Assembly: GCA_964408215.1 (NCBI GenBank)
Contig: CAYOYQ010000001.1
Span: 4,059 to 68,058, forward strand
DNA length: 64,000 bases
Direction: 5' to 3'
Source of the DNA: an uncultured Eubacteriales bacterium
GTDB taxonomy: Bacteria; Acidobacteriota; Aminicenantia; Aminicenantales; Saccharicenantaceae
The number at the start of each line of letters is the position of its first letter. The first letter of the stretch is position 1. This document shows positions 1,958 through 55,987 of this stretch, one piece after another. Under the pieces are notes generated by a model. That model was not told the DNA's origin and did not search any database. It saw only the letters and a program-made list of their open reading frames with translations. The translations under genes and the position numbers were made by a program.

Positions 1958-1992
1958 GGAATCCCCCGGCGCTTCGATCGCGCGCGGGCCAT

Positions 1993-2021: not shown

Positions 2022-2054
2022 ACCGGCTCGAGGTTTCTCCCCAAGGAGGTCGAC

Positions 2055-16265: not shown

Positions 16266-16272
16266 AGGGGGG

Positions 16273-19671: not shown

Positions 19672-19881
19672 GGGACGGTCGCTCCTCCCCAGATTAGTCT
19701 ATCCGGGGCCGTCTGACAAGGATGCCGCAAGAGGGCCCCCGGGGCCTCGGCGACGCTGTATGAGCCACCGGCGGGCGAAGATCCCTCAACGCGGCCATGA
19801 GCATGGAGATGCCTCTGGATTCGGAAGGCTTTTTCGATATAATCGATAGCCGGTCAACCTTATCGGACCCGTGAGGTGATC

Positions 19882-34081: not shown

Positions 34082-34840
34082 GTGTCCAGAAAGCAATGGC
34101 CGTTCATTCTTGCCGGGAGCGTCGGATCCTTGTTGGTCCTCTGGGTGGGTCTGGCCACTTTCGGATTTCCGGGTGATGACATGCTCGGAGCGGCCGGCCG
34201 ACCCGGCGGGGCTTCATGGAGATTCCACCTCGTCGTCGAGAGTGAAGGCACGATCGCCGGACAGGGCGACTGGCAAACGCAGCAGCTCCAGCCTTACCTC
34301 ATCCAGATCCGCCGTGCCGCCTGGACGGGGTTTTTCTGGCAAGTGAACACGTCCCGCAAGATCGTGGAAAAGGCGACCAACACGACGTTCGGGTCATTGC
34401 CCGTCAACCGCAAGACGCTGAATCCGGTCGTCAACGTCACCCCGCCGCCCGATGCGCCGGTGAGCTTCAACCTTCAATTCTCCAACGCCTATCTCGCTTA
34501 CTACACGTCCCAGGCCAAGGTCGCCGTCTACGCGCAGGTCGATTACGGGGAGAATCCCACCCAGATTTCGGATGGCCGCGATCTCGAGGTCAAAGAAGTG
34601 CGGTCCTACCTCTACCATATCCGGATCAAGGCCGGCCTCCCCGGGAACCCTCCCAGCAACTCGTTCTGGCAAGTGAACACGTCGCGTAAAGAAGTTGTGC
34701 GGGTCAAGAACGGGACCTTCGGCCAGATCGGCGGGACCCACGAGCCGACGGCGATGACCGTCACGGTCACCGGAAATCCGGAGGATCCCGCGAGCTTCGG
34801 CCTGAAATTCCCCAGGACCTATCTCTGGTGCGAGAAATGA
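34082..34840 (+). CDS. Hypothetical membrane-anchored protein with an internal repeat
   Basis: GTG start 6 nt after GAAGGAGG. 252 aa. Repeat FWQVNTSRK(I/E)V...N(T/G)TFG...V(N/T)VT...P(V/A)SF(N/G)L(Q/K)F occurs twice. Confidence 0.6.
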   Translation: MSRKQWPFILAGSVGSLLVLWVGLATFGFPGDDMLGAAGRPGGASWRFHLVVESEGTIAGQGDWQTQQLQPYLIQIRRAAWTGFFWQVNTSRKIVEKATNTTFGSLPVNRKTLNPVVNVTPPPDAPVSFNLQFSNAYLAYYTSQAKVAVYAQVDYGENPTQISDGRDLEVKEVRSYLYHIRIKAGLPGNPPSNSFWQVNTSRKEVVRVKNGTFGQIGGTHEPTAMTVTVTGNPEDPASFGLKFPRTYLWCEK

Positions 34841-37426: not shown

Positions 37427-39379
37427 TTAATGGCCCTCGGCCTGGCCGGCGATGAGCTCGGCGGCCTTCTTTTGGACGTCGGGCGAACGGTCCGCTTTGG
37501 CGGCCTCCCGGATGAGGGTGAGGATCTCCGGAACGTTGCGTCCCGTTTCCCAGAGGTTCCGGAGGACCGCCAACCTAACGACCACCGATGCATCTTCTTT
37601 AAAGGACCTGATCTGGGCCTTCATCGTGACCGGCGTCGGCTCCCTGAAGCTGAGCCCGAAAGCCGCCTCCGTCCTGACCGACGAATCCGTATCGCTTACC
37701 AGCGCCTCGGCCAGAAGCTCGTCGGCACCCGGCGCCTGGACCCAACGCAAGCCCGAGGCGGCCACGGACCGGAGCGCCGTGGCGTCGCCCTTCAAGTATT
37801 GACGGAAAACGGGCAGGGCCAGGTCCGAACCCGAATTCCCCAGGGCCAGCAAGAGCAGCCTCGTCTTTTTCTTGGAGTCTGACCGCCCTACATCCGCAAT
37901 GATCTTTTGGACGAGGTCGGCCGCCCGGCCCGGCTCCGACGCCGCGAGGCCGTTGGCGATCATGCCGAGGGCGAGAGTCGCCACCGAAGCCACCTCCGGG
38001 TCCGACGCCTTCGCGGCCAGCTCGGCGACAGCGGCCTGAGTGGCGGGCGTCGCCGGCCGGCCGGAAAGCCCCAGGGACTGGATGATGAGCATGGTCGTTT
38101 TCGGAGGGACGGCCCCGTCCTCGAGGAGACCGACCAGGGCGGCTTGGGCCGGCCCGGTCCCCGCTGACGATAACGCCCCGATGAGGATCTGCTGCGCGGC
38201 GCTGTCGAGCCCTGCGGACGCGGCCCGCGCCGCCAGGGATCCGCAGCTATCCGGATGAAGGTAGACGAGAGCCTTGAACTTGAGATAAAGAGGGGTCGCT
38301 TCGGGCGCTTGGTCCGATCCGATCCGGTCCAGGGCCGCGAGCAGCGTCTCCAGCTTATCCTCTCCGAGGACGGTCCGCTCGATCGCCGCTTCCTGCTCCA
38401 TCTCCGGCAGGCCGAAGGAAAGCGTCTCGGCCGGGGCCCTGGCCAGTCTTTCCGCGCGGATCTGCCGCATCGCCGCGATGATCTCCGGCAGCACGGCCTC
38501 TTCGGAGCTGAGCCGCATGTCGATACCGGCGATGACCCTCCCGATCTCCGTTCCCGAGACGCTGATCGTCTGTGTCTCCTCGCCGACCGTTGAGAGGAGC
38601 CGCCCCCGCTTCACATCGAAGACGGCCTCCAGGCTTCCCTCAGGCTTACGCGTCTGGATCTGTTTCGGTCCGCCCGGGCCGGACGAGGCCGGCTGACTGC
38701 GGTAGCGGACCTTGGCCTTGCGGAAGACCTCGGCCCCGGTCTTCAGCTGTTTGGATAGCTCCCCGCCCCGGCCGGGCAGGACCTCGTAGCGCGCGATATA
38801 AGCGCCTCCCGGGTCGTCCTCGTCGGCTTCCCATCGGGTCATGTGCGGCCCGGACGTTCCAGGCAGAACGACCTGGGCCATCCCGAGCACGGCCCGGGCG
38901 TAGTTGCGGCAGACGCTTTCGACGTCGGGGTCGAACGAGACGGACGTCAGACGGCCCTGGGCTGACATCTCGGCGTAGATATCGAGACGGAGCGCCGCCC
39001 CGATGATCTCGGCTTGGGCGGCCTCCGGACGCCCGTTGACCGTCAGCTCCACGACGGGCTGCCGGAATCCGAAGGAGACGCGGAAGCCGTCGCCGGACCT
39101 TTCGATCACGGTCATGACCAGGTCGCCGGAGATCCGTGTATCGAAGGACTGGGTGACCCCCGCGGCCGACACCGAGCCGGCTTCGCCGGACCTCAGGCTC
39201 TCCAGGAGCTTACGGATATCGGTGGCGGAGCGGCTGGAGTAGTCGAGGCGATAAACGAGCGCCGTGCCTTCCTTGAGGTCATAGACGGGTCCCGCCGAGC
39301 GAGTGGGCCCGCAGGACGAGAGCCAAAGCGCGATCCCGATGACGGCGACGGCGCTGCCGTCGATCTTCCGCCGACGCAT
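37427..39379 (-). CDS. Lipoprotein with strand-rich N-half and HEAT/PBS-type repeats
   Basis: Start MRRRKIDGSAVAVIGIALWLSSC (lipobox) at 39379, 14 nt after the upstream stop. C-terminal repeats: DPEVASVATLALG, DATALRSVAASGL, DSSVRTEAAFGL, DASVVVRLAVLRNL, SPDVQKKAAELI. Confidence 0.65.
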   Translation of the reverse strand: MRRRKIDGSAVAVIGIALWLSSCGPTRSAGPVYDLKEGTALVYRLDYSSRSATDIRKLLESLRSGEAGSVSAAGVTQSFDTRISGDLVMTVIERSGDGFRVSFGFRQPVVELTVNGRPEAAQAEIIGAALRLDIYAEMSAQGRLTSVSFDPDVESVCRNYARAVLGMAQVVLPGTSGPHMTRWEADEDDPGGAYIARYEVLPGRGGELSKQLKTGAEVFRKAKVRYRSQPASSGPGGPKQIQTRKPEGSLEAVFDVKRGRLLSTVGEETQTISVSGTEIGRVIAGIDMRLSSEEAVLPEIIAAMRQIRAERLARAPAETLSFGLPEMEQEAAIERTVLGEDKLETLLAALDRIGSDQAPEATPLYLKFKALVYLHPDSCGSLAARAASAGLDSAAQQILIGALSSAGTGPAQAALVGLLEDGAVPPKTTMLIIQSLGLSGRPATPATQAAVAELAAKASDPEVASVATLALGMIANGLAASEPGRAADLVQKIIADVGRSDSKKKTRLLLLALGNSGSDLALPVFRQYLKGDATALRSVAASGLRWVQAPGADELLAEALVSDTDSSVRTEAAFGLSFREPTPVTMKAQIRSFKEDASVVVRLAVLRNLWETGRNVPEILTLIREAAKADRSPDVQKKAAELIAGQAEGH

Positions 39380-39393
39380 CCCGCTCAGCCCGA

Positions 39394-42300
39394 TCAATAG
39401 CCCGAGAACCACTTGTAAAGGAGCTTGTAATCGTCCTTGCCCAAGTGGAACAAGAAGAACTTGCGCGTGGTGGGGCAAACGGTGGGACCCCTGTCCGATT
39501 TCGTATTGCCCTTGATCTCTTGTTCGTCCAACCAGACGATATCGACGCTGCTGAGGCGCTGCTTCTTCTGCCCGTACTGGCCGGAGCCGCCTCCTCCGCC
39601 TCCTCCCGAAGTCGAAGCAACGCTGCCCATCTCGCCGAACCGATAATGGATGCTGGAGTTCGAGCGCCGGTAGACGATGATGATCTGCTCGCCGGCGACG
39701 CCGACGGCCGGGCCGTCGGTCGACGAGGAGCCATCGACCTTGGTCTCCTCGGTCTCCTCAGGCCCCCATTTCCCCGAGGGGTCGAGGTAGCGGTAATAGA
39801 TGTCGCTGTTGCCGGATCCGCGATGGAAGACGTAGAGGCGGTCGCCGAACGCGCACGCCGCCGGGCTCGCCAGAGCCTTGACGTTCCCCGGGATGAGCTT
39901 CGTTTCCGTGAGGACGATGTCGGTCGTCTTGTCGACGCTCAGGATACCCGGCCTGAACCTCAAATAATTAATGCCCTTGCCCCCGGATTGGACGAAAAAG
40001 AGATATAGCTCACCTTTATAGACGGCGGCGGCAGGGCGGTAGTAGGAGGCTCCCGGGAGCTGCTGGCCGATGGGGTTTTCCGGCCACCATTTCCCGGAGG
40101 AGTCCATGTAGTGATAGTAGATGGCCCAGTCCGGCTGCTTGCGGTTCCCCATCCCGGCCGGCCAGCCGGCGTGAAAGAGATAGATCCGATCCCGGAAGAC
40201 GACGGCCACGGGCGCGCTGCAGGTCACGATGGGGTACGGCTTGAGAGTCGTATCGACGTTCCCGCCGAGCCTCTGCTTGATAGTCCCGTATTGGCTGCGG
40301 CCGCCTCCGCCGGGCTGGGCCGCGGCCCCGGTCGTCCCGGGCTCCTCCGTCTCGACGCTGGTCAGCACGGCCGGATCGAGACTCGCATATTGGATCGTCC
40401 ACCCGTCCAGCCAGAAAGCGTGGAGCTGGCCGTTGAACTCGGCGACCGACGGCGCGAAGACGCCTTTAGACGTATCGTTCAGCGGGAGAAGACAACTCGT
40501 CCCGTAGGGGTCCCAGGTCACGCCGCCGGAGCCCGAGGGCTTGAAGGTCCCGCCCGAGGGGCCGCCGAGCGCTCCGCCAGTGAAGATGTCCCAACTGCCG
40601 GTGACGGGGTCGAACAGGTCGCCCGTGGCCTTCCACCCCTCCCAGCTGATAATGTCCCAGTCCCAGCATTTCTTGTGCCACGGCGGGATATCGAAGGCCG
40701 GGACATAGACGCAGACATAGACACCCAAGCTGCCGCTAAGGGCCTGGAATTCATCGTAGAGGCGCAGGCTATAGGCGATCTTCAGGGAGCTCTCGCCGGC
40801 CTCGAGCTCGCCGATCAAACCCACGCTCCCTTCGAGCACGAGCGAGTTGTTGATCAGGGTCAAGGTGACCTTGACCCCGGCCTCCACGATCAGAAGGCTG
40901 ATGCCGGCGCTGGCGTAGACGTCCGCCCGGACGTAGGGGCCGAACCTGGCGCTGGCGCCGAGAGGGCTGAGATAGATCCCGCCTTCGATCCCGGCCGCGG
41001 CGCGGACGCCGGCCCTTAGGGTGATGACGAACGGACCGATGGGGATCGGCGTCGTATAGGACAGATCGAGGGACTTCTCCCACCGTTCCGTGGCCTCCCA
41101 GTGAGGCAGATCGACGAGCTTCGTCGTGCTCGAATAGGTTTTAGTGGGACAGTTGATGAGATCCCGGGTGGCCATACCGGCGATGTAGAGCGTGACCTTG
41201 GCGCCCATCTCTCCGCCCGGCGAGGGCGCCGTGGCGTTGCCGTCGACCCGGATGAGGGCGAACTTGTTGTCGAAAACATAGCCGCCGGCCTCGGCGTGCG
41301 CTTTGAGCTGGATGTTCCCTCCGGCCTGCACGGCATTGGTGCCCGGAATGGCATAAACGCCGGGCTTCTTGCCCGAGAGCTCGGCGGACCCCTCGAGATA
41401 GATGGCGAAGAGGTCCCTATCGCCGAGGGTCGGCAGGTCCGTTGAATATTCGTATTTGAAGTCGTTCCCCGTTTGGTCCGGCGCTGGCGGAGGAGGAACA
41501 TAGCCGCTCGGTGAAAGAGGGGGCGGCTCCTCGGACCTGTCCTTGATCAGCCGCTGCAGCCGGGCCCGGTCCGCGCTCTGCTGCTTCAGGTATTGCTGCT
41601 GAAATTCGGCGGCTCCCAAGGGCTTGGCGATGGACAAGCGGCGGTGGCGGCCGATGAAATCCTGGCCGGCCTTGCGGACCTGGGCGGCTTGGGCGGCGGA
41701 GAACCGGGTCTCCTGGAGCTTGGCCCCGGGGCTCGGGTCCCGGCGGACGTCGAGGGTGTAGCCGAGGGCGTTGAACTGGCTCTCAAGGATATTGAGGTCG
41801 TTGTAGTAGTCGGCAGCCCGCATGGTCTTCCCGTTCGGAAAAGGAGGCAGCACCGCGTCGGGAGCGATGGCGTTTCCGTTCCGGGGGTCCACGACCGCGA
41901 ACGGCTGATAGGCCAAGGGCTGTCTTCGGTTGACCAGGATCCGGGCCGTCTTGAATTGGGCGTTCCTGACGGGCAGGAGGCTGTCCACCGGCTCCCCGAC
42001 ATAGGGGAGGTGGCCTTTTTCCGCCGCCGAACGCTGGAGCTGTGACTGGAGGCTCCAAACGACCGGTCCGGTGTGCAATTGACCGACCGCTTGCGCTTGG
42101 GCTTCGCCCGCGACAGGCGGAGGGGCGGATGCCTTCGAGGGTTGAGCCTTGGTCGTCGCCGTCCTGGCTGCGGTCGCGGTGGCCTGCCGGGCCTGTGGAG
42201 TGCCCGCCGCCACATCGGACGGCGCGGGAAGCCGGATCGTCACCTGGACCTGGGCTGAGCCGGTCCCGAAATTGACGACGCTGAGCCGCCAGGCGCTCCC

Positions 42301-42690
42301 TTTCGCGAGAAGGGCCGCATTGATGTCAAAGGCCAGGACGAGCGGGCTTGTCCCGTCCCGGCGGGCGTAGGCCTGGGCTTGACCGGGACCATTGAGGATC
42401 AGGGCCAGCTTCGGAGCCGAGCCGGTCCATTCGGCTCGGGCCTCCAACTTGCCGGCCGCCGGAACCTGGACGTCGATGTCCGTGCGCCCGTTGGCCTGGA
42501 GCGCGAACGAACGGGAGGCCGTGCCGGCCGGCGGCGGCGCTGCGGACTGGGCTTTCTTGGCGCTGACTTGGCCACCGGCGGCGCCGGGCCCGTAGGCCCC
42601 CGAGATGGCGAGGGCGATGCCGAGGGCCAACAAGGCCAGGTAGCGCCCCAAGGACTTGGCCATGGATTCCCGCTCCGTTTTGGTTTCCAT
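39394..42690 (-). CDS. Giant secreted hypothetical protein: beta-sandwich head, strand-rich core, six-repeat propeller-like tail
   Basis: About 1098 aa from METKTERES (AAGGAGA RBS); ATG at 42705 or 42663 are alternatives. Signal peptide LALLALGIALAISGAYG. Domain details are in the findings. Confidence 0.7.
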   Translation of the reverse strand: METKTERESMAKSLGRYLALLALGIALAISGAYGPGAAGGQVSAKKAQSAAPPPAGTASRSFALQANGRTDIDVQVPAAGKLEARAEWTGSAPKLALILNGPGQAQAYARRDGTSPLVLAFDINAALLAKGSAWRLSVVNFGTGSAQVQVTIRLPAPSDVAAGTPQARQATATAARTATTKAQPSKASAPPPVAGEAQAQAVGQLHTGPVVWSLQSQLQRSAAEKGHLPYVGEPVDSLLPVRNAQFKTARILVNRRQPLAYQPFAVVDPRNGNAIAPDAVLPPFPNGKTMRAADYYNDLNILESQFNALGYTLDVRRDPSPGAKLQETRFSAAQAAQVRKAGQDFIGRHRRLSIAKPLGAAEFQQQYLKQQSADRARLQRLIKDRSEEPPPLSPSGYVPPPPAPDQTGNDFKYEYSTDLPTLGDRDLFAIYLEGSAELSGKKPGVYAIPGTNAVQAGGNIQLKAHAEAGGYVFDNKFALIRVDGNATAPSPGGEMGAKVTLYIAGMATRDLINCPTKTYSSTTKLVDLPHWEATERWEKSLDLSYTTPIPIGPFVITLRAGVRAAAGIEGGIYLSPLGASARFGPYVRADVYASAGISLLIVEAGVKVTLTLINNSLVLEGSVGLIGELEAGESSLKIAYSLRLYDEFQALSGSLGVYVCVYVPAFDIPPWHKKCWDWDIISWEGWKATGDLFDPVTGSWDIFTGGALGGPSGGTFKPSGSGGVTWDPYGTSCLLPLNDTSKGVFAPSVAEFNGQLHAFWLDGWTIQYASLDPAVLTSVETEEPGTTGAAAQPGGGGRSQYGTIKQRLGGNVDTTLKPYPIVTCSAPVAVVFRDRIYLFHAGWPAGMGNRKQPDWAIYYHYMDSSGKWWPENPIGQQLPGASYYRPAAAVYKGELYLFFVQSGGKGINYLRFRPGILSVDKTTDIVLTETKLIPGNVKALASPAACAFGDRLYVFHRGSGNSDIYYRYLDPSGKWGPEETEETKVDGSSSTDGPAVGVAGEQIIIVYRRSNSSIHYRFGEMGSVASTSGGGGGGGSGQYGQKKQRLSSVDIVWLDEQEIKGNTKSDRGPTVCPTTRKFFLFHLGKDDYKLLYKWFSGY

Positions 42691-42988
42691 CGTTTCTCCT
42701 TTCATGCTCCCATTGAGGGGCTGACAGGATCACGACGACAGATCGATGAGGGATCTTGCAGTTCCGACTCCCCTGGCTGATAGGATTGTTATATATTGGG
42801 CGAGGCGATGTCAAGAGACATCGAACGGGCGGCCTGGAATGTTGAGAACTCCCGTCCCGCTGAGCGCGGCGGTCTCCTGACGAAAACGGCCAACGGCCCT
42901 TTCCCCGGGGTTTACGGAAGCGTCAATGACTCGAACGGCGACGAGACGCGCTCATGAGGAGGCCGCGTCCGGGCCTGTCCGGCCCGGC

Positions 42989-43017
42989 TTGACATCGGAC
43001 GGACGGGGGGCTATAAG
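42989..43017 (+). promoter_or_regulatory. Candidate promoter for the 43077 gene
   Basis: TTGACA (42989-42994), 17-nt spacer, TATAAG (43012-43017). AAGGAGGA at 43065-43072 and ATG at 43077. Confidence 0.55.
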
Positions 43018-43076
43018 GGTCGCAAGGGTTGTAGGAATTCACCGGTCTTTGAACAAGGAGGACCTCATGAAAAGCA

Positions 43077-43858
43077 CGCGGACTTTGCTCGTTCTGGGGC
43101 TCGCGACGATCGTCGCCCTGGCGTTCGTCGCGGCGCCGGCCCGGGCCGACGTCTACATGAAGCAGAAGACCCACACGGGCGCTTTCACGGTCATGGGCCA
43201 GAGCCAGCCGGAGAAAGACGAGATCATGGTCTTCTGGCTCGGCGCCGGGAAGGCCCGGACCGATACCGAGGGGAAATCGACGCTCTTCTTCGCCGACAAG
43301 AAGGTCCTCGTCGGGCTCGACCACGCCGCTAAGACCTACAGCGAGATCCCCTTGGACTTCGACAAGATGTTCGAGGGGGCCGCCGCGGCCCAGGAGCCCA
43401 AGGACGCGGAAGAGGCCGAGGCCATGAAGAAGATGCCCGGCTTCATGAAGAACATGATGAAGGGCGTCATGGGCAGCATGTCGGCCAAGGTCACAGAGAC
43501 CGGCGAGACCAAGACGATCGGGAGCTGGAAGTGCCGGAAGTACCTTATCGACATGACCATGATGGGCGGTGAGATGAAATCGGAGGCCTGGGCCACCGAG
43601 GACCTCAAGGTCGACTACAGCCTGGCCTTCGCCATGTCCAACGCCATGATGGCCGCCCAGCCTGGCTTCGACAAGATCCTCCAGGAGATGAAGAAGGTCA
43701 AGGGGGTCGTCGTCTACCAGACGGCGACGACCAAGATGATGGGCGCCGAAGTCGCCTCGACGACCGAGGTCCTCGAATGCTCGGACCAGAGCGCCCCGGC
43801 CGGGACCTACGACATCCCCGCCGGCTATAAGAAGGTCAAAGCCGGCCGGGGCAGGTAG
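43077..43858 (+). CDS. Hypothetical secreted protein (Met/Lys-rich)
   Basis: 260 aa with signal peptide ...FVAAPARA, a strong RBS and a promoter. The longer ORF from 42926 was rejected because the promoter lies inside it. Confidence 0.65.
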
Positions 43859-44869: not shown

Positions 44870-45097
44870 GTTCCCCTCCTTGGCTATCGCCCTGATCTTC
44901 CGCGGGCAGAGGATATCAGCGCCGCTCGGGACGGTCAACCTCCGCGGGTTGACATCCGGGCGCGAAAAAGGCTACCCTTGGCCCATCGACGAGCGGGCAC
45001 ATCGGATGGGGCCAAGACCGAGCGGCACCGGTTCCTGAGTTTCTTTTTGTGCCCCCGGCCGCCGGCCGCGGCCGTTCCGGCCCCGAAGGAGGGAACC

Positions 45098-46471
45098 ATG
45101 TCCACACAGCGTCTCGGCGTTGTCAGGGTGTCGGCTCTGTGTCTCGCCGGCGCACTCGTCCTTTCCGTCGCGGCCCAGGCCCAAAGCGGCGCGGCGCCGA
45201 AGGAGCAGCGAGCCAACAAGGCGGCCAAGGTCGAAGTGACCGCTTCGGGATTTGAGCAGCAGGTCGCGTCCAAGACCGCGCCGGCCGGCCGGTCCTACTA
45301 CGTCCTCGAGACCGCCTGGACCAACATCCATCCTAAGCAGAAGGTCCGCAAGGACGATCTCGAAGGGAAGCAGGACCGGACTATGGGCGTCGGCGGGCTC
45401 ATGACCGGCGGCCAGTCAGAGAAGAAGGTCGAGTACGTCGATGCCGATGTCACTTACCTCGTGCCCTCGTTCTTCGACCACGCCTACCTCCTCGCCGACG
45501 GCGCCAGCTTCGCCCTCGATCCCTTGACGGAAAAGGTCGCGGGCGGCTATGGGCTCAAGAAGGAATTCGTCCTGCCCAAGCTGGGCGACACGAAGAAGGT
45601 CCGTTTCGTCTATCTCTTGCCGGAGGGCGCCAAGAACCTGGCCTTCCAGTTCTTCGATTATTCCTACGGCCACGTCCTCATCCCGCTCACGGGCGACCTC
45701 AAGCTCGCCGCCGGGGCCGCCGGGACGGCGCCCAAGGGGCTGGGCACGCTCAAGGACGAATACCTGGAGCTCGCCGCGGCCGCCCTCGACTTCAAGCCCG
45801 CTTACAAGGACGAGGAGGCGCCCGAAGGCTGGCGTTACGCCGTGGTCAAGCTCAACGGCAAGAGCCTGTCCAAGGGCAACATCGTCCAGGTCGAGCCGAC
45901 CGAATACATCTGGCTGGCCACCAAGGCCGGCCACATCTACTACGCGGCCGGAGGCTCGACGACCGACGAGGGCTTCATCCGTTTCACCCCCGAGTTCACC
46001 CAGAACCAGGAGGTCGCTTTCGTCGTGCCCGCGGCCGAGAAGGAGCTCAGTCTGGGGATGCGGGTCGAGAACCGAGTCTATGCCCTGGCGCTGAGCGCCC
46101 CGCCCGCCGCCGGGCCGGCCTCAGAGCCGAAGGCGGTGCACAAGGACGGCCGGACGCTGGAGGTGATGCTCTTCGGCGCCCGCCGTGAGAAGGGGCTCGT
46201 CATCCTGGACCTGGGCATCCGCTCCCTCGTCAAGAGCGGCGCCGAGATCCAGGCCGAAGTGCAGTTCATCCTCAAGGCCGGCGGCGAGGACGTCGCTTAC
46301 GACGAAGAAGCCACGGCCGCGCTGGCCCACCGTCCGCCGACGCCGTTCACCGTGCCGCCGCAGTCGTTCGTCCGCTTCGAGCTGGCTTTCGCGACCGAGG
46401 CGGCCCCCGCGTCGCTCTATTACCGCGGCTACGGGAGCGAGAAGACGTTCAGCCTGGCCGGTCTGAAGTGA
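45098..46471 (+). CDS. Hypothetical secreted protein (beta-rich, Ig-like/DUF4352-like by eye)
   Basis: 457 aa, GAAGGAGGG RBS, signal peptide ...LSVAAQAQ. The upstream 398 codons of ORF 43904..46471 are antisense shadow of the methyltransferase gene. Confidence 0.6.
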   Translation: MSTQRLGVVRVSALCLAGALVLSVAAQAQSGAAPKEQRANKAAKVEVTASGFEQQVASKTAPAGRSYYVLETAWTNIHPKQKVRKDDLEGKQDRTMGVGGLMTGGQSEKKVEYVDADVTYLVPSFFDHAYLLADGASFALDPLTEKVAGGYGLKKEFVLPKLGDTKKVRFVYLLPEGAKNLAFQFFDYSYGHVLIPLTGDLKLAAGAAGTAPKGLGTLKDEYLELAAAALDFKPAYKDEEAPEGWRYAVVKLNGKSLSKGNIVQVEPTEYIWLATKAGHIYYAAGGSTTDEGFIRFTPEFTQNQEVAFVVPAAEKELSLGMRVENRVYALALSAPPAAGPASEPKAVHKDGRTLEVMLFGARREKGLVILDLGIRSLVKSGAEIQAEVQFILKAGGEDVAYDEEATAALAHRPPTPFTVPPQSFVRFELAFATEAAPASLYYRGYGSEKTFSLAGLK

Positions 46472-46488
46472 TCGAAGAAGAGGGGACG

Positions 46489-48717
46489 ATGAAAAAGATC
46501 CTGGTTGTCCTTTTGGCCGCCGCGGTCGTCTTGACGGCCGCCGGTTGCTCCAAGAAGAAGGGTAAAGCCTCCGAAACGGCCGCTTCGGCCGAGGAAACCG
46601 GAGCGGCCCGGGTCGAGGCCGCGGAATCGACCGTCGAGGCGGATCCGGAAGCGGAGTCTCGCGCCACCCTGCCCGGGGACGGAGAGTGGCAGGACGCCTT
46701 CAAGTTCGTCCGCGATGCCATCCGGACCGAGCCCTCGCGCTTCCCCTTGAAGACGCAGGACGGTGTTGAATGGGGCCGGAGCGCCAATCCCTTGGAAAAG
46801 GCCCTTTTCCTGGCCCGCCTGCTTCAGGAGAAGGGAATGACCGTGGAGATCGCGGAGGGCGAGCTCGACGACGCGGCGGCGAAAAGGCTCCTCGGCGCGA
46901 TCTTCCCCCCGGCCAAGGCGCCGAGCTATAAGAGCGGCACGCCCATCTCCGATCCCGCCGCGGACCGGAGCCTCGTCGCCGCGGTCAAGCGCCATTTCTG
47001 GGTCCGGCTCGAGGAGGGGGACGGCTGGATCGACCTCGACCCGAGCTTCCCCTCCGCGGAGCCCGGCCGGGCCTTCGCGGAGCTGGCGGACTCGCACGAC
47101 CCGGCCGACGAGGCCCTGGGTGTGAAGGTCAGTGTGTGGGTCGGACGAAGGGTCGGCTCGTCAAGCGATCCGGAACCGGTTTTTAGATGGGACGGAACGC
47201 TGGCCGATGTGGCCAATAAGCCCGTGTCGTTGACGGTGATGACGGAATACCGCGGCGGAGAGGCCGAAGCGAAGGAAAAAGAAGAGGAGGCGGGCGGAGG
47301 CGTCGGGGGCCTCTTCGGCGGCCTCAGCGGGGGAACGTCCGGGGCGAAGAAGAAGCCGGCCGGCGACGCGGAAGCGTATCTTAAAGTCGCGCTGATGGCG
47401 GGCGAGGACGGCCTGGCCGACGGCGAAGCCGCCGCGGCGGAGGGGACGGAGATCCGGCTTAACCTCGGGATCAAGTTCGAGAGCCTGGGCGAGGTCGTTT
47501 CGTTCCCCGGAAGCGTCATCTTCAAGGCCGTCCTCGGCCGGGCCGACGCGCCTCTCTTCCAAAGGCACGCCCTGCTCATCACCGGGGACCGCATCCCCGC
47601 CTCGACCTGGAAGGACGACGTCACAGCCGTTTCCGCGGCCGACGCGCGGAGCGAGGCCAAGGCCGAAGCCGACAAGATCAGGGCCGCCCTCAAGGCCAAA
47701 AAGGCCACGGCCAAGACCCTGTCGTCGGGCGTCGAGCTCGAGGCCAGGTTGGGCAGCGACCTCGGCCACCTCATGAACATGATCTTCGCCTCGACCTCGG
47801 ACGATCAGACCGAGAAGCAGGCCGCGGCCCTGTCCGTGGCCAGCTGGTACGCCGTGCCGCGCGTCATCGTCACGTCCTTCAGCGGGAGCGGGGAGAGAAC
47901 GGAGGCGACGATCGACCTCCGCCAAGACCGGGTCGAGTCGGTGGCCCTGCCCGGTCAGGGTTGGGGCATGAGCCAGGCCTTCCAGTACGGCCGGGGGGTC
48001 ATGGAATCGATCCTCGAGGGCAAGTTATTGTCCCTGCTCACCGGCAAGCCGGCCCTGACCACGGCCTTCATCATGGAAGAGGCCGCCCGCAAGAAGGTCC
48101 CCATCCGGATGTTCTCGTCCCTCGAAATAGACCAGGTGAAGGCGCTCGGCCTGGCGCCCGAAGTCCAAGGCTTGATCGAAGGGACCCTCGCGTCTTCGGG
48201 GCGCATCGTCATGGTCCCGGAGAAACCCATCGCTTGGGAAGGGCGGCCGCGCTGGGGCTGGTGGGAGGTCGACCCGCGGACGCGGGAGACGATCGGGGTC
48301 CTCGATACCGGCCTCCACCAGGCCATGCTCGAGCACACGATCCTCCAGGAAAAGGGCGCGATGAGCACCAAGATGGGAGCGGTGCTCGGGGCCATGGTCG
48401 GGGCGGTCGACACGTATTGGCTCCTCATGGGCATGATCCTCAAGCACGGCGAGCTGACCAAGGAAGCCCTGCTCGAGGCCAAGGCCTACATGAAGGACAT
48501 CCAATCGGTCATGTGCCCGGGCTTCGAGAAGAAGATCAGTATCGAAGCCAGCGTCAACCTCATCGACATCGAGGACTGCTTCAAATACGACTTCGAGATC
48601 TACAAGGCCGAGGCCGGCGTCTCGATCAGCCAAGGCTGGTGCGATCAGTTCGCCAAGGGCTTCGCCTGCGCCTCGACCTCGATCCTCAACTATTATCTCA
48701 GCCAGTTCGAGGACTAG
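46489..48717 (+). CDS. Lipoprotein with a transglutaminase-like domain lacking the Cys nucleophile, plus a large unassigned C-terminal region
   Basis: Start MKKILVV with lipobox LTAAGC. The segment GRSANPLEKALFLARLLQEKGMTVEIAEG...RHFWVRLEEGDGWIDLDPS fits the TGase-core spacing. Confidence 0.65.
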   Translation: MKKILVVLLAAAVVLTAAGCSKKKGKASETAASAEETGAARVEAAESTVEADPEAESRATLPGDGEWQDAFKFVRDAIRTEPSRFPLKTQDGVEWGRSANPLEKALFLARLLQEKGMTVEIAEGELDDAAAKRLLGAIFPPAKAPSYKSGTPISDPAADRSLVAAVKRHFWVRLEEGDGWIDLDPSFPSAEPGRAFAELADSHDPADEALGVKVSVWVGRRVGSSSDPEPVFRWDGTLADVANKPVSLTVMTEYRGGEAEAKEKEEEAGGGVGGLFGGLSGGTSGAKKKPAGDAEAYLKVALMAGEDGLADGEAAAAEGTEIRLNLGIKFESLGEVVSFPGSVIFKAVLGRADAPLFQRHALLITGDRIPASTWKDDVTAVSAADARSEAKAEADKIRAALKAKKATAKTLSSGVELEARLGSDLGHLMNMIFASTSDDQTEKQAAALSVASWYAVPRVIVTSFSGSGERTEATIDLRQDRVESVALPGQGWGMSQAFQYGRGVMESILEGKLLSLLTGKPALTTAFIMEEAARKKVPIRMFSSLEIDQVKALGLAPEVQGLIEGTLASSGRIVMVPEKPIAWEGRPRWGWWEVDPRTRETIGVLDTGLHQAMLEHTILQEKGAMSTKMGAVLGAMVGAVDTYWLLMGMILKHGELTKEALLEAKAYMKDIQSVMCPGFEKKISIEASVNLIDIEDCFKYDFEIYKAEAGVSISQGWCDQFAKGFACASTSILNYYLSQFED

Positions 48718-48757
48718 AGGGATGAGCCGGACGGGAACACGCACGGAGGACACAGTC

Positions 48758-51064
48758 ATGAGGAACGCCCTGAAAAAGGTCTTTTGCGCAGCAGCGGTCG
48801 CCGCCGTTCTCGCGGCCGGAGCGGTCACGCTCACGGCCCAGGAGGCCGTCGAGAAGGAGCCGAACAACGCTCCGGCCCAGGCCATGGCGATCGCGCTCGG
48901 GACGACGATCTCGGGTTTCGCCAACGAGGACGAGGACGACGACTGGTACGCGCTGACCATTCCGGCGCCGGGCCTCGACGCCGTCATCCTCGAGCTCAGC
49001 GGGATCGCCGAGGTCAACCTGGTGCTGCGCTTCTGCGACGCGTCGGGCAAGACGCTCTCGGACATGGACTGTTTCGGCAGCGATGAGGGCGAAACGCTCG
49101 TCCGGCTGAGGCAAGCGGCCGGCAAGTTCCTGGTCAACGTCCACACGGACCGGGGCGGGGACACGGAACATGCCTATAAGCTCCGGGTCCGCAAGCACGA
49201 CCGGCCGCCGGCCACGCCCGAGGAGGTCCGCCAGGCCCTGGCCAAGGCGCTCGCCTTCCTGGCCTCCACCCAACTGGAGGACGGTTCCTGGTCCCACTAC
49301 GAAGTGGCCGGGGCCGGGCTGGCCACGATGGCCTTCATCGGCGGCGAGTGCGCCGGAAAGGACTATTCCGCGAACATCCGCGCTGCGCTGGGCTATCTCC
49401 GGGCCCAGTTCACCCCGGGCTCGCAGTTCCCGGCCGGCTCCGAGGAGGCGGCCATCCGCGGCGGCATGTTCGGGCCCGTCAGCTCCAAGGTCATGTACGA
49501 TCAGGCCATCGCCACCCTCAGCGTCATCGAGGCCTTCGCCGCGCTCAACGAGGCGAGCCTCGAGCCGGTGGCCGAAGAGGCGATCGGGCTCATCGTCTGG
49601 TCCCAGAACTCGGCCCAGAAGCCGGCGACGCTCAAGGGCCCTACGCCGGCCGATTCGCCCCATTACGGCGGCTGGCGCTACGAGCCCGACTACGAGGACG
49701 CGGACCTCTCGGTCAGCGCCTGGCAGGTCCTGGCCCTGCGGGCGGCCGTCAACGCCGGGTTCAGCGTCCCGGACCGGGCCTTCAAGGACGCCGCCAAGTA
49801 CGTCAAGTCGCTCAAGGGCGAAGATGGTTCGTTCGGGTACGACGGGCCGGTCGACATCGGCGATTCCTGCGCCCGGGCCGGCATGGGCGCGCTGGCCCTG
49901 CAGCTGTGCGGCCTGCCGAAGGACCCGGCCATCGCGCCCGCCATCCGGTTCATGCAGAGCTACGGCCCGGCCTGGAACTTCGAGTACCCGGGGGACGGGT
50001 ATCCGTTCTATTACTGGTACTACGGGACGCGGGTCATGTACCTCGCCGGCGGGGAGGATTGGCGGGTCTGGAAGGATTACATGTGCCGCTTCCTCGTCGA
50101 CAACCAGGAGCAGAAGGGCGGCTGGGGCGGCGCGCAGCATGAGGAATCGGATGCCCTCGAAACCTACCGGGCGGCCCTCGGGGCGCTCATGCTCGAGTTC
50201 TGCTGCGGCCATGTCCCGATCTACATGGCGGCGCCGCGGGTCAAGACGCCGGGTGAGATCCGCGTCGTCCTGGAGAAGGAGGCGGAGAAAGAGACGCCCC
50301 AGACCGTCGAGATCATCATGGACGCCTCGAACTCGATGACCGGGCTGGTCGGCAAGGAGACCAAGATCGCCGCGGCGCGGCGGGTCCTGAAGCAGACGAT
50401 CGAGGGCCTGCCGGGGACGATGAACGTCGGGCTGCGGGTCTACGGCCACCGCTATGCCACGGACGACTACGACAACGCCTGCCGCGACACCGAGCTGGTC
50501 GTGCCCGTCGGGCCGATCGACAAGGCCGCCCTCACGAACTGGGTCGACAGGATCCAGACCAAGGGCCGGACCCCGCTCGTGGCCAGCGTGCTGGCGGCGA
50601 TCAAGGACCTCGAGAAGGTCCCCAATGCCAGCATCGTCCTGGTGACCGACGGGATCGAGAGCTGCAAGGGCGACATCAGGTCGATCGCCCCGGCCATCAA
50701 AGCGACCGACCTGGCACTCGAGGTCAACATCGTCGGGTTCGATATCAAGGAAGCGGAGGGCCGGCAGGAGCTCGAGTCGATCGCCCGGTCGACGGGCGGC
50801 CGCTACATCGACGCCCGCAACGCCGGCGAGCTCGTCGCGGCCCTGGACCAGGCCCTCAAACTCGGCTTCGTCGCCCTCGACGCCGCGGGGACAGAGGCCG
50901 GTCGGGGCGTGGTCGGCGGGGATGCGGTCAAGCTGCCGCCCGGCGAATACACTATCCGCGTCCTCACCGCGCCGCAGCCGGTCGAGCTCAAGGTGACGGT
51001 CAGGTCCGGCGAGCCGCGGGAGCTGAAGCTGAAGAAGGCGGGAGGCGCCTGGACCCTGCAGTAA
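48758..51064 (+). CDS. Secreted PPC-domain / prenyltransferase-like alpha-alpha toroid / VWA (MIDAS) protein
   Basis: Start MRNALKK (GGAGGA RBS). EPNN...DDDWYAL (pre-peptidase C-terminal type). QW-like repeats LEDGSW, HYGGWRY, GEDGSFGY, QKGGWGG. VWA domain with DASNS (DxSxS) ...GRTPL...VTDG. Confidence 0.75.
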   Translation: MRNALKKVFCAAAVAAVLAAGAVTLTAQEAVEKEPNNAPAQAMAIALGTTISGFANEDEDDDWYALTIPAPGLDAVILELSGIAEVNLVLRFCDASGKTLSDMDCFGSDEGETLVRLRQAAGKFLVNVHTDRGGDTEHAYKLRVRKHDRPPATPEEVRQALAKALAFLASTQLEDGSWSHYEVAGAGLATMAFIGGECAGKDYSANIRAALGYLRAQFTPGSQFPAGSEEAAIRGGMFGPVSSKVMYDQAIATLSVIEAFAALNEASLEPVAEEAIGLIVWSQNSAQKPATLKGPTPADSPHYGGWRYEPDYEDADLSVSAWQVLALRAAVNAGFSVPDRAFKDAAKYVKSLKGEDGSFGYDGPVDIGDSCARAGMGALALQLCGLPKDPAIAPAIRFMQSYGPAWNFEYPGDGYPFYYWYYGTRVMYLAGGEDWRVWKDYMCRFLVDNQEQKGGWGGAQHEESDALETYRAALGALMLEFCCGHVPIYMAAPRVKTPGEIRVVLEKEAEKETPQTVEIIMDASNSMTGLVGKETKIAAARRVLKQTIEGLPGTMNVGLRVYGHRYATDDYDNACRDTELVVPVGPIDKAALTNWVDRIQTKGRTPLVASVLAAIKDLEKVPNASIVLVTDGIESCKGDIRSIAPAIKATDLALEVNIVGFDIKEAEGRQELESIARSTGGRYIDARNAGELVAALDQALKLGFVALDAAGTEAGRGVVGGDAVKLPPGEYTIRVLTAPQPVELKVTVRSGEPRELKLKKAGGAWTLQ

Positions 51065-51074
51065 AACAAGCAAA

Positions 51075-51123
51075 GAGAGGGTCAAACCTATTTTTTTCGA
51101 AAAAAAGTAGGTTTGACCCCCTC
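51075..51123. terminator. Long palindromic hairpin, likely intrinsic terminator
   Basis: GGGTCAAACCTA (51079-51090) pairs with TAGGTTTGACCC (51108-51119). The centre is T7-CG-A7, so either strand reads stem plus U-run. It lies 11 nt after the stop at 51064. Confidence 0.6.
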
Positions 51124-51139
51124 TTCAAGGAGGCGGGGG

Positions 51140-52363
51140 ATGAGGACCGTGACGTGGTCCGGGCTCGTGCTGCTCTTGACAGCCGGCACGGTCGGGGGCG
51201 TCGCCGATGCCCCCAAAGGCCTGCCGGCCTATGCGGACATCATGGGGGGAACCGTCGCCCAGGCCGGTCCCGGAGCGTCCCCCCTCGTCCCCACGGGCGT
51301 CTCGGCGCAGGGAGGCCAAGGGTCGGTGACCCTGAGCTGGAAGGCGTCCGCGGGCGCGACATCGTACAACGTCTATTACGCGAGGTCCGCTTCGGTCTCC
51401 AAGACAAACGGCACCAAGGTCGACGGCATCGTGGGCAGCCCTTATACGGTCAGGCGCCTCTCGGACCGGACGCCCTATTTCTTTGTCGTGACGGCCTTGA
51501 ACGCGGACGGCGAGAGCCGCGAATCGTCCTGGGTCATGGCCGCGCCGAGGGCCAAGGTCCCCAAGCCCGGGCTCGTGCGCATCCCCGCCGGGCCCTTCCG
51601 GATGGGCGACAGCCTCGACAACACGGCCTATGCGCTCCCCGTCCACACGGTCAACCTCGACGAGTTCTGGATCGACCGGTACGAGACGACCTACGCGCTC
51701 TGGAGAAAGGTCTATGACTGGGCGGTCGAGCACGGCTACGCGTTCGACAACGCCGGGCAGAACGGCTCGACCCGCCAGGGCAACGACCTGCCCGTGACGA
51801 TGGTCAGCTGGTACGATTCGGTCAAATGGCTCAACGCCCGCTCGGAGAGGGAGGGCCGGACGCCCGTCTATTACACCGACGACGACCATACGGCCGTCTA
51901 TCGCTCGGGGAACGTCGACCTCGCCGCCGCCCACGTGCGCTGGGACGCGGACGGCTTTCGATTGCCGACGGAGGCCGAATGGGAGAAGGCGGCCCGCGGC
52001 GGTCTCGCCGGCCGGCGCTACCCCTGGGGCGACGAGCTCGGTCCGGACCAGGCCAACCACAACCTGGGCGTGGCCGCGCCCGTCGGCCTGTTCGCGCCCA
52101 ACGGCTACGGGCTCTACGACACGGCCGGGAACGTCTTCGAATGGGTCTGGGACTGGGGGTCGGAGACGCAGGCCTACCATTGGGCCGCCGATGGGGCCGA
52201 GAACCCGCGCGGGCCCGACGCCAGCGACAAGGGGACGAGGGTCCGGCGCGGCGGCGGGTTCTCCTACGGCCCCCAGCACCTCAAGTGCTTCGGGCGGATG
52301 TTCCGGAAGCCGACCTACACCGCGCCCTACTTCGGCTTCCGTTCGGCCTCGCGCCGGCGCTGA
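51140..52363 (+). CDS. Formylglycine-generating-enzyme family (FGE-sulfatase / C-lectin fold) protein with an N-terminal Fn3-like domain
   Basis: AAGGAGG RBS and signal peptide. SVTLSWKASAGATSYNVYY (Fn3-like). RIPAGPFRMGD..., NVFEWVWDW, RVRRGGGF...YFGFRSA (FGE-domain hallmarks). Confidence 0.85.
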   Translation: MRTVTWSGLVLLLTAGTVGGVADAPKGLPAYADIMGGTVAQAGPGASPLVPTGVSAQGGQGSVTLSWKASAGATSYNVYYARSASVSKTNGTKVDGIVGSPYTVRRLSDRTPYFFVVTALNADGESRESSWVMAAPRAKVPKPGLVRIPAGPFRMGDSLDNTAYALPVHTVNLDEFWIDRYETTYALWRKVYDWAVEHGYAFDNAGQNGSTRQGNDLPVTMVSWYDSVKWLNARSEREGRTPVYYTDDDHTAVYRSGNVDLAAAHVRWDADGFRLPTEAEWEKAARGGLAGRRYPWGDELGPDQANHNLGVAAPVGLFAPNGYGLYDTAGNVFEWVWDWGSETQAYHWAADGAENPRGPDASDKGTRVRRGGGFSYGPQHLKCFGRMFRKPTYTAPYFGFRSASRRR

Positions 52364-54553: not shown

Positions 54554-55987
54554 ATGAGAACGCGCTGGATAACCCTGATCTGCCTCGCCGGCGTGCTCTC
54601 GTCGGCGGTCCCCGCGACGGCCCAGACCGATGAGACGACCTACGTCCGGCCGAAGGAGCCGGCTGTCCGGGCCAACCTCGAAAAATGGCAAGGCTACAAG
54701 TTCGGGCTGCTCATCCACATGGGCCTCTATTCCGAGCTCGGGACGGTCGAATCCTGGGGCCTTTGCCCGGAAGACTGGGTCACCCGGCCGGGCTTCGACG
54801 ATTACTACGCCTACGCCGCCCACTACCGCGGCACGAAAGCCCGCTTCAACCCCGCCGGTTTCGACCCGGCCCGGTGGGCCCGGGCGTTCAAGGGCTCGGG
54901 CGCGAGGTACGTCATCACCAGCACCAAGCATCACGACGGCTTCTGCCTCTTCGACACCAAGTACACCGATTTCAAGGTCACCGATCCCGGCTGTCCTTTC
55001 TCCTCGAACCCCAAGGCCAACGTCTACAGGGAGGTCCTGAGCGCGTGCCGGAACGAGGGCCTTGTCGTCGGGGCCTATTTCTCCAAACCCGACTGGACCT
55101 CGCCCTATTTCTGGTGGCCCTATTATCCGCCGAAGGACCGGAACCCGACCTACGACATCACCAAGCATCCCGAGCGCTGGCGGAAGTTCGTCGAATACAC
55201 CCACAACCAGATCGCCGAGATCACCGAGGACTACGGGCCGGTCGACATCCTCTGGCTCGACGGCTGCTGGGTCCTGCCGAAGTCGGCCATCACGGAGAAG
55301 GTGGCCGAGTTCTGCAAGTACCCGTACGACATGGACATCGACATGAAGGCGATCGCCGAGCGGGCCCGCCGGACGAACCCCGGCATGCTCGTCGTCGACC
55401 GCTGGGTCCAGGGCGAATACGAGAACTACCTCACCCCGGAGCAGCGAACTCCCGAGAAGCCGCTGGCCGTGCCCTGGGAGAGCTGCCTGACCATGGGCAA
55501 CGCCTGGGGCTGGGTGCCGAACGACCGCTACAAGTCCGGCCGCGAGCTCGTCCAGCTCCTCGTCCGGATCGTGGCCAAGGGCGGGAACCTGCTCCTCGGC
55601 GTCGGGCCGAGCGGGAAAGGGGAGTTCGAGCCGGCCGTCTACGAGCGCCTGGAGGCGATGGGCCGCTGGCTCGGGGCGAACGGCGAGGCCATCTACGGGA
55701 CCCGGCCGGTCGCGCCCTATCAAGACGGGCCTATCGCCTACACCGCCAAGGGAGACACGACGGTCTACGCCATTTATCTCACCGGGGACAAAGAGACCGT
55801 TCTGCCCGAGTCTCTCGATATCAAGACGGGCCTCGCCGGCCCGGTGCGGGTGACGGAGCTTTCGACCTCGAAAACGCTCAGCCATAAAGTCGAGGCGGGC
55901 GGCCTCCGCGTCGCCCTGCCGGGATCCCTGCGAAAATCCTTGGCCGCCCAAGAAGCGGTCGTGCTCAAGATCTCTCGCCGCTCTTAA
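54554..55987 (+). CDS. Alpha-L-fucosidase (GH29)
   Basis: 477 aa with a signal peptide. KFGLLIHMGLYS..., ARYVITSTKHHDGFCLFDTKYTDFKV, ILWLDGCW, typical GH29 motifs. Confidence 0.9.
   Translation: MRTRWITLICLAGVLSSAVPATAQTDETTYVRPKEPAVRANLEKWQGYKFGLLIHMGLYSELGTVESWGLCPEDWVTRPGFDDYYAYAAHYRGTKARFNPAGFDPARWARAFKGSGARYVITSTKHHDGFCLFDTKYTDFKVTDPGCPFSSNPKANVYREVLSACRNEGLVVGAYFSKPDWTSPYFWWPYYPPKDRNPTYDITKHPERWRKFVEYTHNQIAEITEDYGPVDILWLDGCWVLPKSAITEKVAEFCKYPYDMDIDMKAIAERARRTNPGMLVVDRWVQGEYENYLTPEQRTPEKPLAVPWESCLTMGNAWGWVPNDRYKSGRELVQLLVRIVAKGGNLLLGVGPSGKGEFEPAVYERLEAMGRWLGANGEAIYGTRPVAPYQDGPIAYTAKGDTTVYAIYLTGDKETVLPESLDIKTGLAGPVRVTELSTSKTLSHKVEAGGLRVALPGSLRKSLAAQEAVVLKISRRS

Follow-up and report, generated by a model that had tools for sequence, protein, structure and literature searches.

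A conserved three-gene unit of Aminicenantes, Atribacterota and other bacteria encodes exported proteins that may form a split binding complex on the envelope

The described proteins that come closest to the products of the three genes studied here, which we call g1, g2 and g3 and which follow one another in a 64,000-nucleotide stretch of contig CAYOYQ010000001.1 from an uncultured member of the Aminicenantia (hereafter the window), resemble them in parts. DUF4352 proteins, which include B. subtilis YcdA, YjhA and YxkC, phage lipoproteins and the C-terminal domain of Mpr, are extracytoplasmic, as is g1, and appear to have the same fold as each g1 domain; the one studied role of DUF4352 is that of an oligomerisation scaffold in Mpr, a mycobacterial phage-resistance protein (PMC12596739). 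Transglutaminase (TGase)-like cysteine peptidases of family PF01841, such as LapG/BTLCP, CPR-C4 (7ob6) and the Cytophaga protein 3isr, have the fold of the N-terminal core of g2, with its conserved His and Asp. g3 recalls two further groups. With the VWA modules of integrin I-domains, pilus tip adhesins and BatA/BatB it shares an extracytoplasmic location and the intact DxSxS...T...D motif of the metal-ion-dependent adhesion site (MIDAS), and with the toroids of terpenoid cyclases, prenyltransferases and thioester proteins (squalene-hopene cyclase; the thioester domains (TED) of TEP1, C3 and alpha-2-macroglobulin) it has QW-like repeats and profile similarity in common. Finally, giant adhesin-like proteins from metagenomes, themselves uncharacterised, have the same two-part head as g2 (e.g. 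P0295, 6188 aa, and P0342, 2980 aa).

Genome comparison indicates that g1, g2 and g3 have been conserved together, as a syntenic unit, in Aminicenantes, Atribacterota and other bacterial lineages. Our preferred reading, to which we assign a probability of roughly 0.4, is that the three proteins form one extracytoplasmic, non-enzymatic binding complex on the envelope, split into head, stalk and tip. We favor a complex that binds without catalysis because all three proteins carry export signals, because the genes stay together while their order is permuted, because components occur as fusions, because g2 has lost the catalytic Cys of its fold and its head recurs on giant proteins, and because g3 combines an invariant MIDAS with variable, multiplied N-terminal parts and is expanded into paralogues. 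From these observations and the identities of the domains we infer how the subunits would assemble, what they would dock to, where in the envelope they would sit and what they would bind.

The window has a G+C content of approximately 67%, and the three open reading frames (ORFs), all on the + strand, have a high third-position GC (Table 1). An earlier note on this DNA, made from its letters, had given coordinates, lengths and motifs that were all correct on re-reading of the sequence, and had described short spacers, ribosome-binding sites (RBS) and an export signal on each gene, a picture borne out by sequence and hydropathy. The spacers measure 17 nt between g1 and g2 and 40 nt between g2 and g3; purine-rich RBS-like runs precede g1 (AAGGAGGG), g2 (GAGGGG) and g3 (GGAGG), and a hydrophobic N-terminal signal opens all three proteins alike. 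The signal peptide of g3 is of the cleavable type. In g2 there is a lipobox, LTAAG/C, whose Cys-Ser pair is retained in 18 of the 21 N-terminally complete relatives that were aligned; proteins of a distant subclade start with an ordinary signal peptide instead. A promoter scan gave no + strand promoter-like site 5' of g1, and the gene upstream, which encodes an O-methyltransferase, is divergent.

The g2 sequence of the window is P0001 in the protein collection, and its close relatives come from metagenomes and, where the source is named, from Candidatus Aminicenantes. When the g2 profile was used to scan species-representative genomes, 31 loci emerged, and the components were mapped on these and on further contigs (designated by L numbers) by tblastn and hidden Markov models (HMMs). 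The earlier note had singled out synteny as a check, and the three genes are indeed co-located in other genomes: g1 adjoins g2 in 21 of 26 informative loci, and g1, g2 and a g3-type gene occur together in 18 of the 23 that are informative for both partners. A g3-type gene is present in 23/23 loci counted informative for g3, a count that cannot show absence, as no locus qualified without one. The gene order is g1-g2-g3 in Aminicenantes, g2-g1-g3 in Atribacterota (L026 and L031, with 11-nt spacing) and g3-g1-g2 in L023, a metagenome-assembled genome (MAG), with intergenic spacers of 11-40 nt. Among distant g2 relatives, L040 carries g2, g1 (HMM E = 6e-126) and a stand-alone VWA gene of 267 aa, and in L039 g2 is followed by a gene for a 1434-aa PPC...VWA-C protein.

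Two kinds of fusion were also found. In L036 a single ORF encodes g1 followed by two PPC domains, and in the giant proteins P0342 and P0311 the g2 head is joined to a g3-type toroid; some giant proteins also carry lectin domains. Taken as sequence evidence, these fusions support a physical association of the components. They also bear on the simplest alternative, namely that the three are independent exported proteins, neighbors by chance and without a common function. The absence of g1 or g3 beside g2 in some loci and the lack of a detected + strand promoter-like site 5' of g1 would be in keeping with it, but adjacency survives at protein identities of 40% or less, across permuted gene order and phylum-level divergence, the spacers are just 11-40 nt, and the two kinds of fusion are independent of each other, so that we regard chance as very improbable.

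In two MAG contigs of 1.6-1.7 Mb, L027 (10001-12113) and L029 (9998-12108), g2 is split over several frames, which probably reflects assembly indels rather than true pseudogenes.

PF01841 is the sole annotation among the 103 close homologues of g2. The protein itself has no meaningful match in Pfam or NCBIfam, and sequence and profile searches against the PDB gave nothing. The AlphaFold2 (AF2) model of the whole protein has a predicted local distance difference test (pLDDT) of 62, with block values mostly of 80-94 in the core. The Foldseek matches to the TGase-like cysteine proteases 7ob6, 7pjo, 3isr, 4xz7 and 3kd4 were local and weak (E 0.6-3), with about 120 residues aligned; axonemal chains, which ranked first in the search with whole g2, were discarded as not meaningful (TM-scores around 0.1). 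Distant g2 relatives match PF01841, and in alignment with them the catalytic Cys position of g2 is occupied by Pro (..SANPLEKA..), with His169 and Asp184 of the triad retained and nearly invariant. The Cys-less TGase-like core proposed in the earlier note thus agrees with the model, the Foldseek matches, the annotation of relatives and the alignment. Compared with TGase-like cysteine peptidases, g2 has an incomplete Cys-His-Asp triad, because the catalytic Cys is absent, and approximately 480 additional residues without a counterpart.

Most members of the g2 superfamily have Ser at the nucleophile position (GNS motif); the window protein and its near relatives have Pro there, and one further subclade has Ala. 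As a consequence the cross-linking role that had been suggested for this locus is unlikely. A rival explanation would nevertheless retain catalysis: the TGase-like or the middle domain of g2 would be an active transamidase or protease that processes g1 and g3 or cross-links them into a fibre, sheath or matrix, to be compared with sortase-built pili with VWA tip adhesins. Consistent with it are the nearly invariant His and Asp, the prevalence of Ser at the nucleophile position, the invariant polar motifs of the middle domain and the invariant Lys/Gln-bearing loop of g1 (HPKQKV), which is modelled as disordered. The presence of Pro or Ala in part of the family implies, on the other hand, that the nucleophile residue is dispensable; the middle domain has no enzyme match in Pfam or the PDB, and neither a sortase nor an LPXTG motif was found. 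Covalent assembly or maturation is rather unlikely in our judgment.

The remainder of g2 is less familiar. The Gly-rich disordered loop that had been read from the sequence, EEEAGGGVGGLFGGLSGGTSGAKKK, is present, with pLDDT values below 50; it is kept by most family members and absent from P0017 and P0024. This loop (EEEE-GGxGGLFGGLSG-KKK) sits in a sandwich region; the remainder also comprises long helices and a strongly conserved middle domain, which has the motifs FASTSD, PR, DLRQDR, YGRGxxESxLEG, RWGWWxVDP and GVxDxGLHQ and ends in a Gly-zipper-like hydrophobic helix (aa 632-651, from hydropathy). For this remainder, the C-terminal tail included, Pfam and the PDB gave no sequence match. 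The idea that its middle or C-terminal region might be a second, degenerate TGase domain was ruled out by hhalign, with a probability of about 1% or less.

When the g2 profile was run against 1.84 billion representative proteins, it produced 4,294 matches at E <= 1e-3, carrying one or both of the conserved g2 regions, and 575 at E <= 1e-30. Many are proteins of 2,000-6,188 aa in which the TGase-like core and the middle domain form an N-terminal head, followed by FixG_C, PKD, Big_1/Invasin_D3, DUF642 or PA14 repeats; most of the ten that were examined open with an N-terminal hydrophobic stretch. These giant proteins look like surface adhesins. They differ from the triad in being single polypeptides that are not encoded in operons, the neighbors of their genes being unrelated, and no g1-type domain was found in them. 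One may tentatively go further, although with considerable doubt, and suppose that the g2 head defines a large unrecognised superfamily that nucleates surface machines in two formats, a giant chain and a split three-subunit form; the activity common to both, perhaps a metal-dependent capture of polymers or phages at the envelope, would have no characterised counterpart. The split format would then consist of g2 as the head, g1 as a DUF4352 adapter and g3 as exchangeable VWA arms.

g1 had been described as beta-rich, and its AF2 model (pLDDT 80.6) is indeed all-beta, with three sandwich domains. The best PDB match of the model in Foldseek is 5bxg (E = 6.8e-5), with further matches to 9a4z, 4r4g and 3cfu, and YxkC, YcdA, YjhA and 3fbq are among the best; in the viral library (BFVD) the best matches bear the name DUF4352 (E = 7e-9) or are phage lipoproteins. 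No meaningful match for g1 was obtained in Pfam or NCBIfam, and the Atribacterota orthologue scores 23.1 bits against Pfam DUF4352 (PF11611), below the cut-off of 25.9. More than 300 g1 homologues were found. With respect to DUF4352 proteins, g1 is set apart by its three tandem domains, the lack of a Pfam match and of a nuclease partner, and its linkage to g2 and g3. Its most conserved stretch is a loop, part of which (aa 89-108) is modelled as disordered (pLDDT < 50); we consider it a candidate interaction or processing site. The loop is retained in the distant orthologues of L036 and L040 and not in Atribacterota.

The fold of g1 raises the question of phage defence. A complex that senses or blocks phages at the surface, with g1 as an oligomerising DUF4352 scaffold as in Mpr (PMC12596739) and the VWA arms as decoys or sensors, would fit the DUF4352-type domains of g1, whose closest viral counterparts are DUF4352 proteins and lipoproteins of phages, as well as the variable and multiplied g3 paralogues. 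It would also fit the surroundings of the triad in L031 (Atribacterota, MAG of Ca. Phoenicimicrobium oleiphilum), where it lies between an Mrr restriction endonuclease gene (7015-7929) and an AbiEi/AbiEii pair (16737-18450), and in L001, where a PD-(D/E)XK gene is immediately upstream. Yet the defence-island-like Mrr/AbiE context occurs in L031 only and defence flanks in one or two loci altogether, and in most Aminicenantes loci the triad is found among catabolic genes, not defence genes. Moreover, the triad proteins have no PADLOC match, the g2 profile matched nothing on viral contigs, and the conserved set is devoid of a nuclease or NTPase effector. Envelope phage defence or exclusion is, in our view, improbable.

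For g3, the PPC domain, the toroid and the VWA domain with an intact MIDAS that the earlier note had recognised are supported by homologous units, by the family profile and by a motif scan, respectively; sequence and profile searches of full-length g3 against the PDB gave nothing. PF04151 is matched by 15 of 26 homologous PPC units (best E = 2.9e-8) and not by the unit of the window itself, whose membership is thus assigned through homology. The VWA_2 score of g3, 26.6 bits, is just below the cut-off of 27, and VWA homologues of the module carry PF00092, PF13519 and PF13768. In the alignment of 20 homologues, the first D, both S and the T of the MIDAS are present in 20/20 and the last D in at least 80%. 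A search with the VWA-C module returned mostly short fragments, which confirmed the VWA identity and provided nothing on architecture. Unlike described VWA/MIDAS modules, the VWA of g3 is fused to PPC and toroid domains and has no Bat or sortase/pilin partners.

The only constant part of g3 is this C-terminal module, and the N-terminal part varies. Other loci have from 1 to 5 PPC domains per g3, and tandem g3 paralogues, two or three in number, occur in L008, L011, L013, L032 and L033. In one subclade (L001, L019, L021 and L022) the g3 partner is a 1316-aa protein that has only the VWA-C module in common with g3, at 50% identity; its upstream part comprises 3-keto-disaccharide-hydrolase/LamG-like and discoidin-like domains and an extra VWA. 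Since this subclade swaps PPC-toroid for lectin-like domains and a second VWA, the toroid is, on the strength of these comparisons, an optional module and not a fixed member of the unit.

The profile of the g3 toroid family matched squalene-hopene cyclase (E = 8e-9) and the TEP1 thioester domain (1.7e-3) in the PDB, and weak Pfam Prenyltrans/SQHop matches fall on the toroid. An invariant CCGH motif closes it, and many of its aromatic, Cys and acidic residues are invariant. A motif scan found no DxDD, DDxxD or CGEQ in the toroid, the sole DxDD of g3 lying in the PPC domain (residue 58), and a regular-expression search found no CGEQ or C.EQ anywhere in g3, in agreement with what had been reported on CGEQ. 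In comparison with class II terpene cyclases, g3 has no DxDD in its toroid and a single toroid of approximately 345 aa, not a two-domain beta-gamma arrangement; in comparison with thioester-domain proteins, it has neither CGEQ nor MG domains, is secreted and is fused to a VWA domain. One could still imagine that the toroid is catalytic, as a terpenoid/prenyl-type or six-hairpin glycan-active enzyme, with g1 and g2 as anchor or accessory proteins and the fn3/FGE-sulfatase protein encoded downstream in the same pathway. The strength of the cyclase match, the invariant residues (CCGH among them), the FGE-sulfatase gene 3' of g3 in seven related loci and here, and the sulfatase and glycosidase genes nearby would agree with this. 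That match runs, however, through repeated helix-hairpin (QW-type) repeats and not active-site regions, the non-catalytic TEP1 domain is matched as well, DxDD and DDxxD are missing, and the subclade with lectin-like domains in place of the toroid retains g1, g2 and VWA-C. An enzymatic toroid therefore seems to us a poor prospect.

In the non-enzymatic complex that we prefer, the giant adhesin-like proteins, which bear this head at the N-terminus of a single chain, would have a counterpart divided into subunits. g2, with its Cys-less TGase-like fold, middle domain and Gly-zipper helix, would be the lipid-anchored head or hub, and g1, with its three DUF4352-type sandwiches, an Ig-like adapter or stalk. 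g3 would act as an exchangeable arm, whose VWA/MIDAS-C module docks on the hub or on a ligand through a metal-coordinated acidic residue and whose variable N-terminal part (1-5 PPC domains and a toroid, or lectin-like domains) recognises the target. The target would most likely be polymeric, for instance a glycan or a protein, as weakly suggested by the lectin-type domains of the alternative arms and by the glycan- and sulfatase-rich catabolic neighborhood. That the unit is a capture or surveillance device, as proposed in the earlier note, is an inference.

Several points weigh against this proposal. L004, L015, L021 and L039 lack g1 beside g2, and L019 retains no more than a remnant of it, so that g1, as far as these loci indicate, is not obligatory in cis; L014 has g1-g2 and no g3-type gene within 4.4 kb downstream. 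The middle domain of g2 could be an unrecognised enzyme, since the model is of moderate quality outside the core, and a Ser-type activity is possible in g2 relatives, given that His and Asp are kept and that Ser takes the Cys position in most of the superfamily. Finally, the analogy between g1 and a stalk is loose, because the giant proteins have no g1-like domain. The probability not covered by the readings discussed here goes to an explanation of some kind not yet conceived.

Downstream of g3, the earlier note had placed a strong terminator that closes the unit. The palindrome is real and strong: its folding energy is -32 kcal/mol (z = -6.9 relative to shuffled sequences), and no other inverted repeat in the window is as strong. 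A 3' U-tract is missing, though, the stem being followed by CCCCCUCUUCAAGGAGG with the U-run inside the stem, and a terminator scan gave no call there. Among relatives an equivalent hairpin occurs only in L027 (about 14470-14535); the two have common outer arms (AAGAGxGGGTCA.../...TGACCCCCTCTT) and different yet complementary inner stems. In L004, L007, L008, L029 and L033 the gap of approximately 20-120 nt between g3 and the FGE-sulfatase gene has no such hairpin. The element thus looks, from its sequence and distribution, like a small inserted palindrome, lineage-specific, rather than a conserved terminator, and it probably does not close the unit. A single arm-like remnant is retained in L007.

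The unit may in fact extend past g3, because the fn3/FGE-sulfatase gene is often syntenic downstream. It is found there in L004, L005, L007, L008, L027, L029 and L033 as well as here, directly after g3 in six of these seven (L005 has an insert), and the proteins of the seven related Aminicenantes loci are 70-82% identical. The FGE-sulfatase protein may belong to the unit as a fourth, lineage-specific component, or may serve nearby sulfatases. The g2 profile also gave weak matches to three short stretches of the L005 interval that separates g3 from the FGE gene (14868-16769), which suggests a diverged or decayed second g2-like gene.

Clustering of all six-frame ORFs was noisy, with alternative-frame ORFs in this high-GC DNA, and gave as recurrent neighbors only the FGE protein, the O-methyltransferase and an upstream 310-aa protein, all lineage-restricted. 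The last is encoded two genes upstream of g1 (42926-43858, +) and has no annotation; homologues that are 62-70% identical lie upstream of the unit in L004 (8393-9220) and L005 (5960-6649), and the clustering joins ORFs of L007 and L029 to part of it, a weak recurrence. The L004 copy matches Pfam DUF4412; in L036 an unrelated gene (7358-8266), located upstream of its distant g2, does so too.

In the wider window we note two paralogous proteins that combine a sulfatase with C-terminal TPRs (13981-16887 and 17524-19698, both -), a GH127 beta-L-arabinofuranosidase (19843-22305), a DPP-IV/S9 peptidase (1947-4460) and a fucosidase (54554-55987); the region looks devoted to the degradation of sulfated glycans and peptides. 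On the minus strand, the 1103-aa ORF at 39394-42705 has no Pfam match, and the adjoining 683-aa protein (37427-39478) shows HEAT repeats and a Vitellogenin_N-like (lipoprotein amino-terminal) match. A 906-aa protein (34690-37410, +) carries four CarboxypepD_reg-like beta-sandwich domains and is a large protein of exported or surface type.

Table 1. Position of the three genes in the window, of the domains and motifs of their products, and of the features that flank them
Feature	Position	Strand	Description or basis
RBS-like AAGGAGGG 5' of g1	45086-45093	+	read from sequence
g1	45098-46471	+	secreted protein, 457 aa
g1 signal peptide	aa 1-29
g1 beta-sandwich domains, DUF4352-type	aa 43-198, 216-331, 346-452		AF2 model and Foldseek
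g1 highly conserved loop	aa 74-101 (45317-45400)		WxNIHPKQKVxKxxLEGKxDRTMG, most conserved g1 stretch
g2	46489-48717	+	lipoprotein, 742 aa, proposed hub of the unit; 103 close homologues, alignment, AF2 model
g2 transglutaminase-like core	46687-47253 (aa 67-255)	+	model, weak Foldseek, PF01841 in relatives, active-site alignment
g2 disordered loop	47254-47367 (aa 256-293)	+	acidic, Gly-rich and basic stretches: EEEAGGGVGGLFGGLSGG..KKK
g2 conserved middle domain	47686-48438 (aa 400-650)	+	common to giant proteins
g2 Cys-containing C-terminal tail	48439-48714 (aa 651-742)	+	C676, C697, C718 and C727 nearly invariant
g3	48758-51064	+	secreted protein, 768 aa: signal peptide, PPC, alpha/alpha toroid, VWA, C-terminal beta-rich region
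g3 PPC domain	48839-49207 (aa 28-150)	+	PF04151 matches in homologous units
g3 alpha/alpha toroid, QW-like repeats	49208-50242 (aa 151-495)	+	profile against PDB, weak Pfam, motif scan
g3 constant module	50240-51061 (aa 495-768)	+	VWA with intact MIDAS (DASNS...T...D), conserved Cys pair, then beta-rich C-terminal region
Palindromic hairpin, 25-nt arms, 3-nt loop	51073-51125 (arms 51073-51097, 51101-51125)	.	between g3 and FGE-sulfatase gene
fn3 and FGE-sulfatase protein with signal peptide	51140-52363	+	Pfam; starts 15 nt past hairpin

Aminicenantes and Atribacterota are abundant, mostly uncultured subsurface lineages, and to our knowledge essentially nothing is known of their envelope biology. 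The triad is one of few multi-gene envelope modules common to both, and the family of g2 counts thousands of proteins, whose database labels go no further than 'transglutaminase domain' or 'hypothetical'. The giant adhesin-like proteins that bear this head are intractable in experiments; should the three proteins form a split head-stalk-arm complex, they would provide a tractable model of how the giants work, and would show how these bacteria bind polymers or particles; if they serve in defence, they would represent a surface-acting system outside current catalogues.

As for described multi-gene systems, the earlier note had named a Bat-type or alpha-2-macroglobulin locus, or a lack of synteny, as findings that would speak against it; the genes are syntenic, and the locus corresponds to neither system. 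In the Bat operon (MoxR-DUF58-BatA-E), the VWA proteins BatA and BatB have N-terminal transmembrane anchors and BatC is a TPR protein, whereas g3 has a cleavable signal peptide, PPC and toroid, and the unit has no TPR gene; no AAA_3/MoxR or DUF58 match was found in the 33 window proteins scanned, nor in related loci with precomputed Pfam matches. Alpha-2-macroglobulin loci are characterised by a CxEQ thioester, an MG array and a PbpC-type neighbor. Neither CxEQ nor MG was found in g3; no A2M or MG Pfam match was seen in g3 or its neighbors, and alpha-2-macroglobulin components were likewise absent from the window and from those related loci for which Pfam matches had been precomputed. Pili assembled by sortases and bearing a VWA tip adhesin rely on a sortase and LPXTG signals, and the triad has neither: LPXT[GAS] is absent from g1, g2 and g3, and the neighbors gave no sortase Pfam match. 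PADLOC-DB v2 contains no match for g1, g2, g3, the FGE protein or the upstream 310-aa protein. In the literature we found no description of this combination of domains and genes, in line with the earlier note, which knew of no described system with this composition; a paper on archaeal type IV pili that names VWA and squalene cyclase concerns unrelated loci. Thus the unit formed by g1, g2 and g3 is real, conserved and undescribed, and its building blocks are all of known domain kinds.

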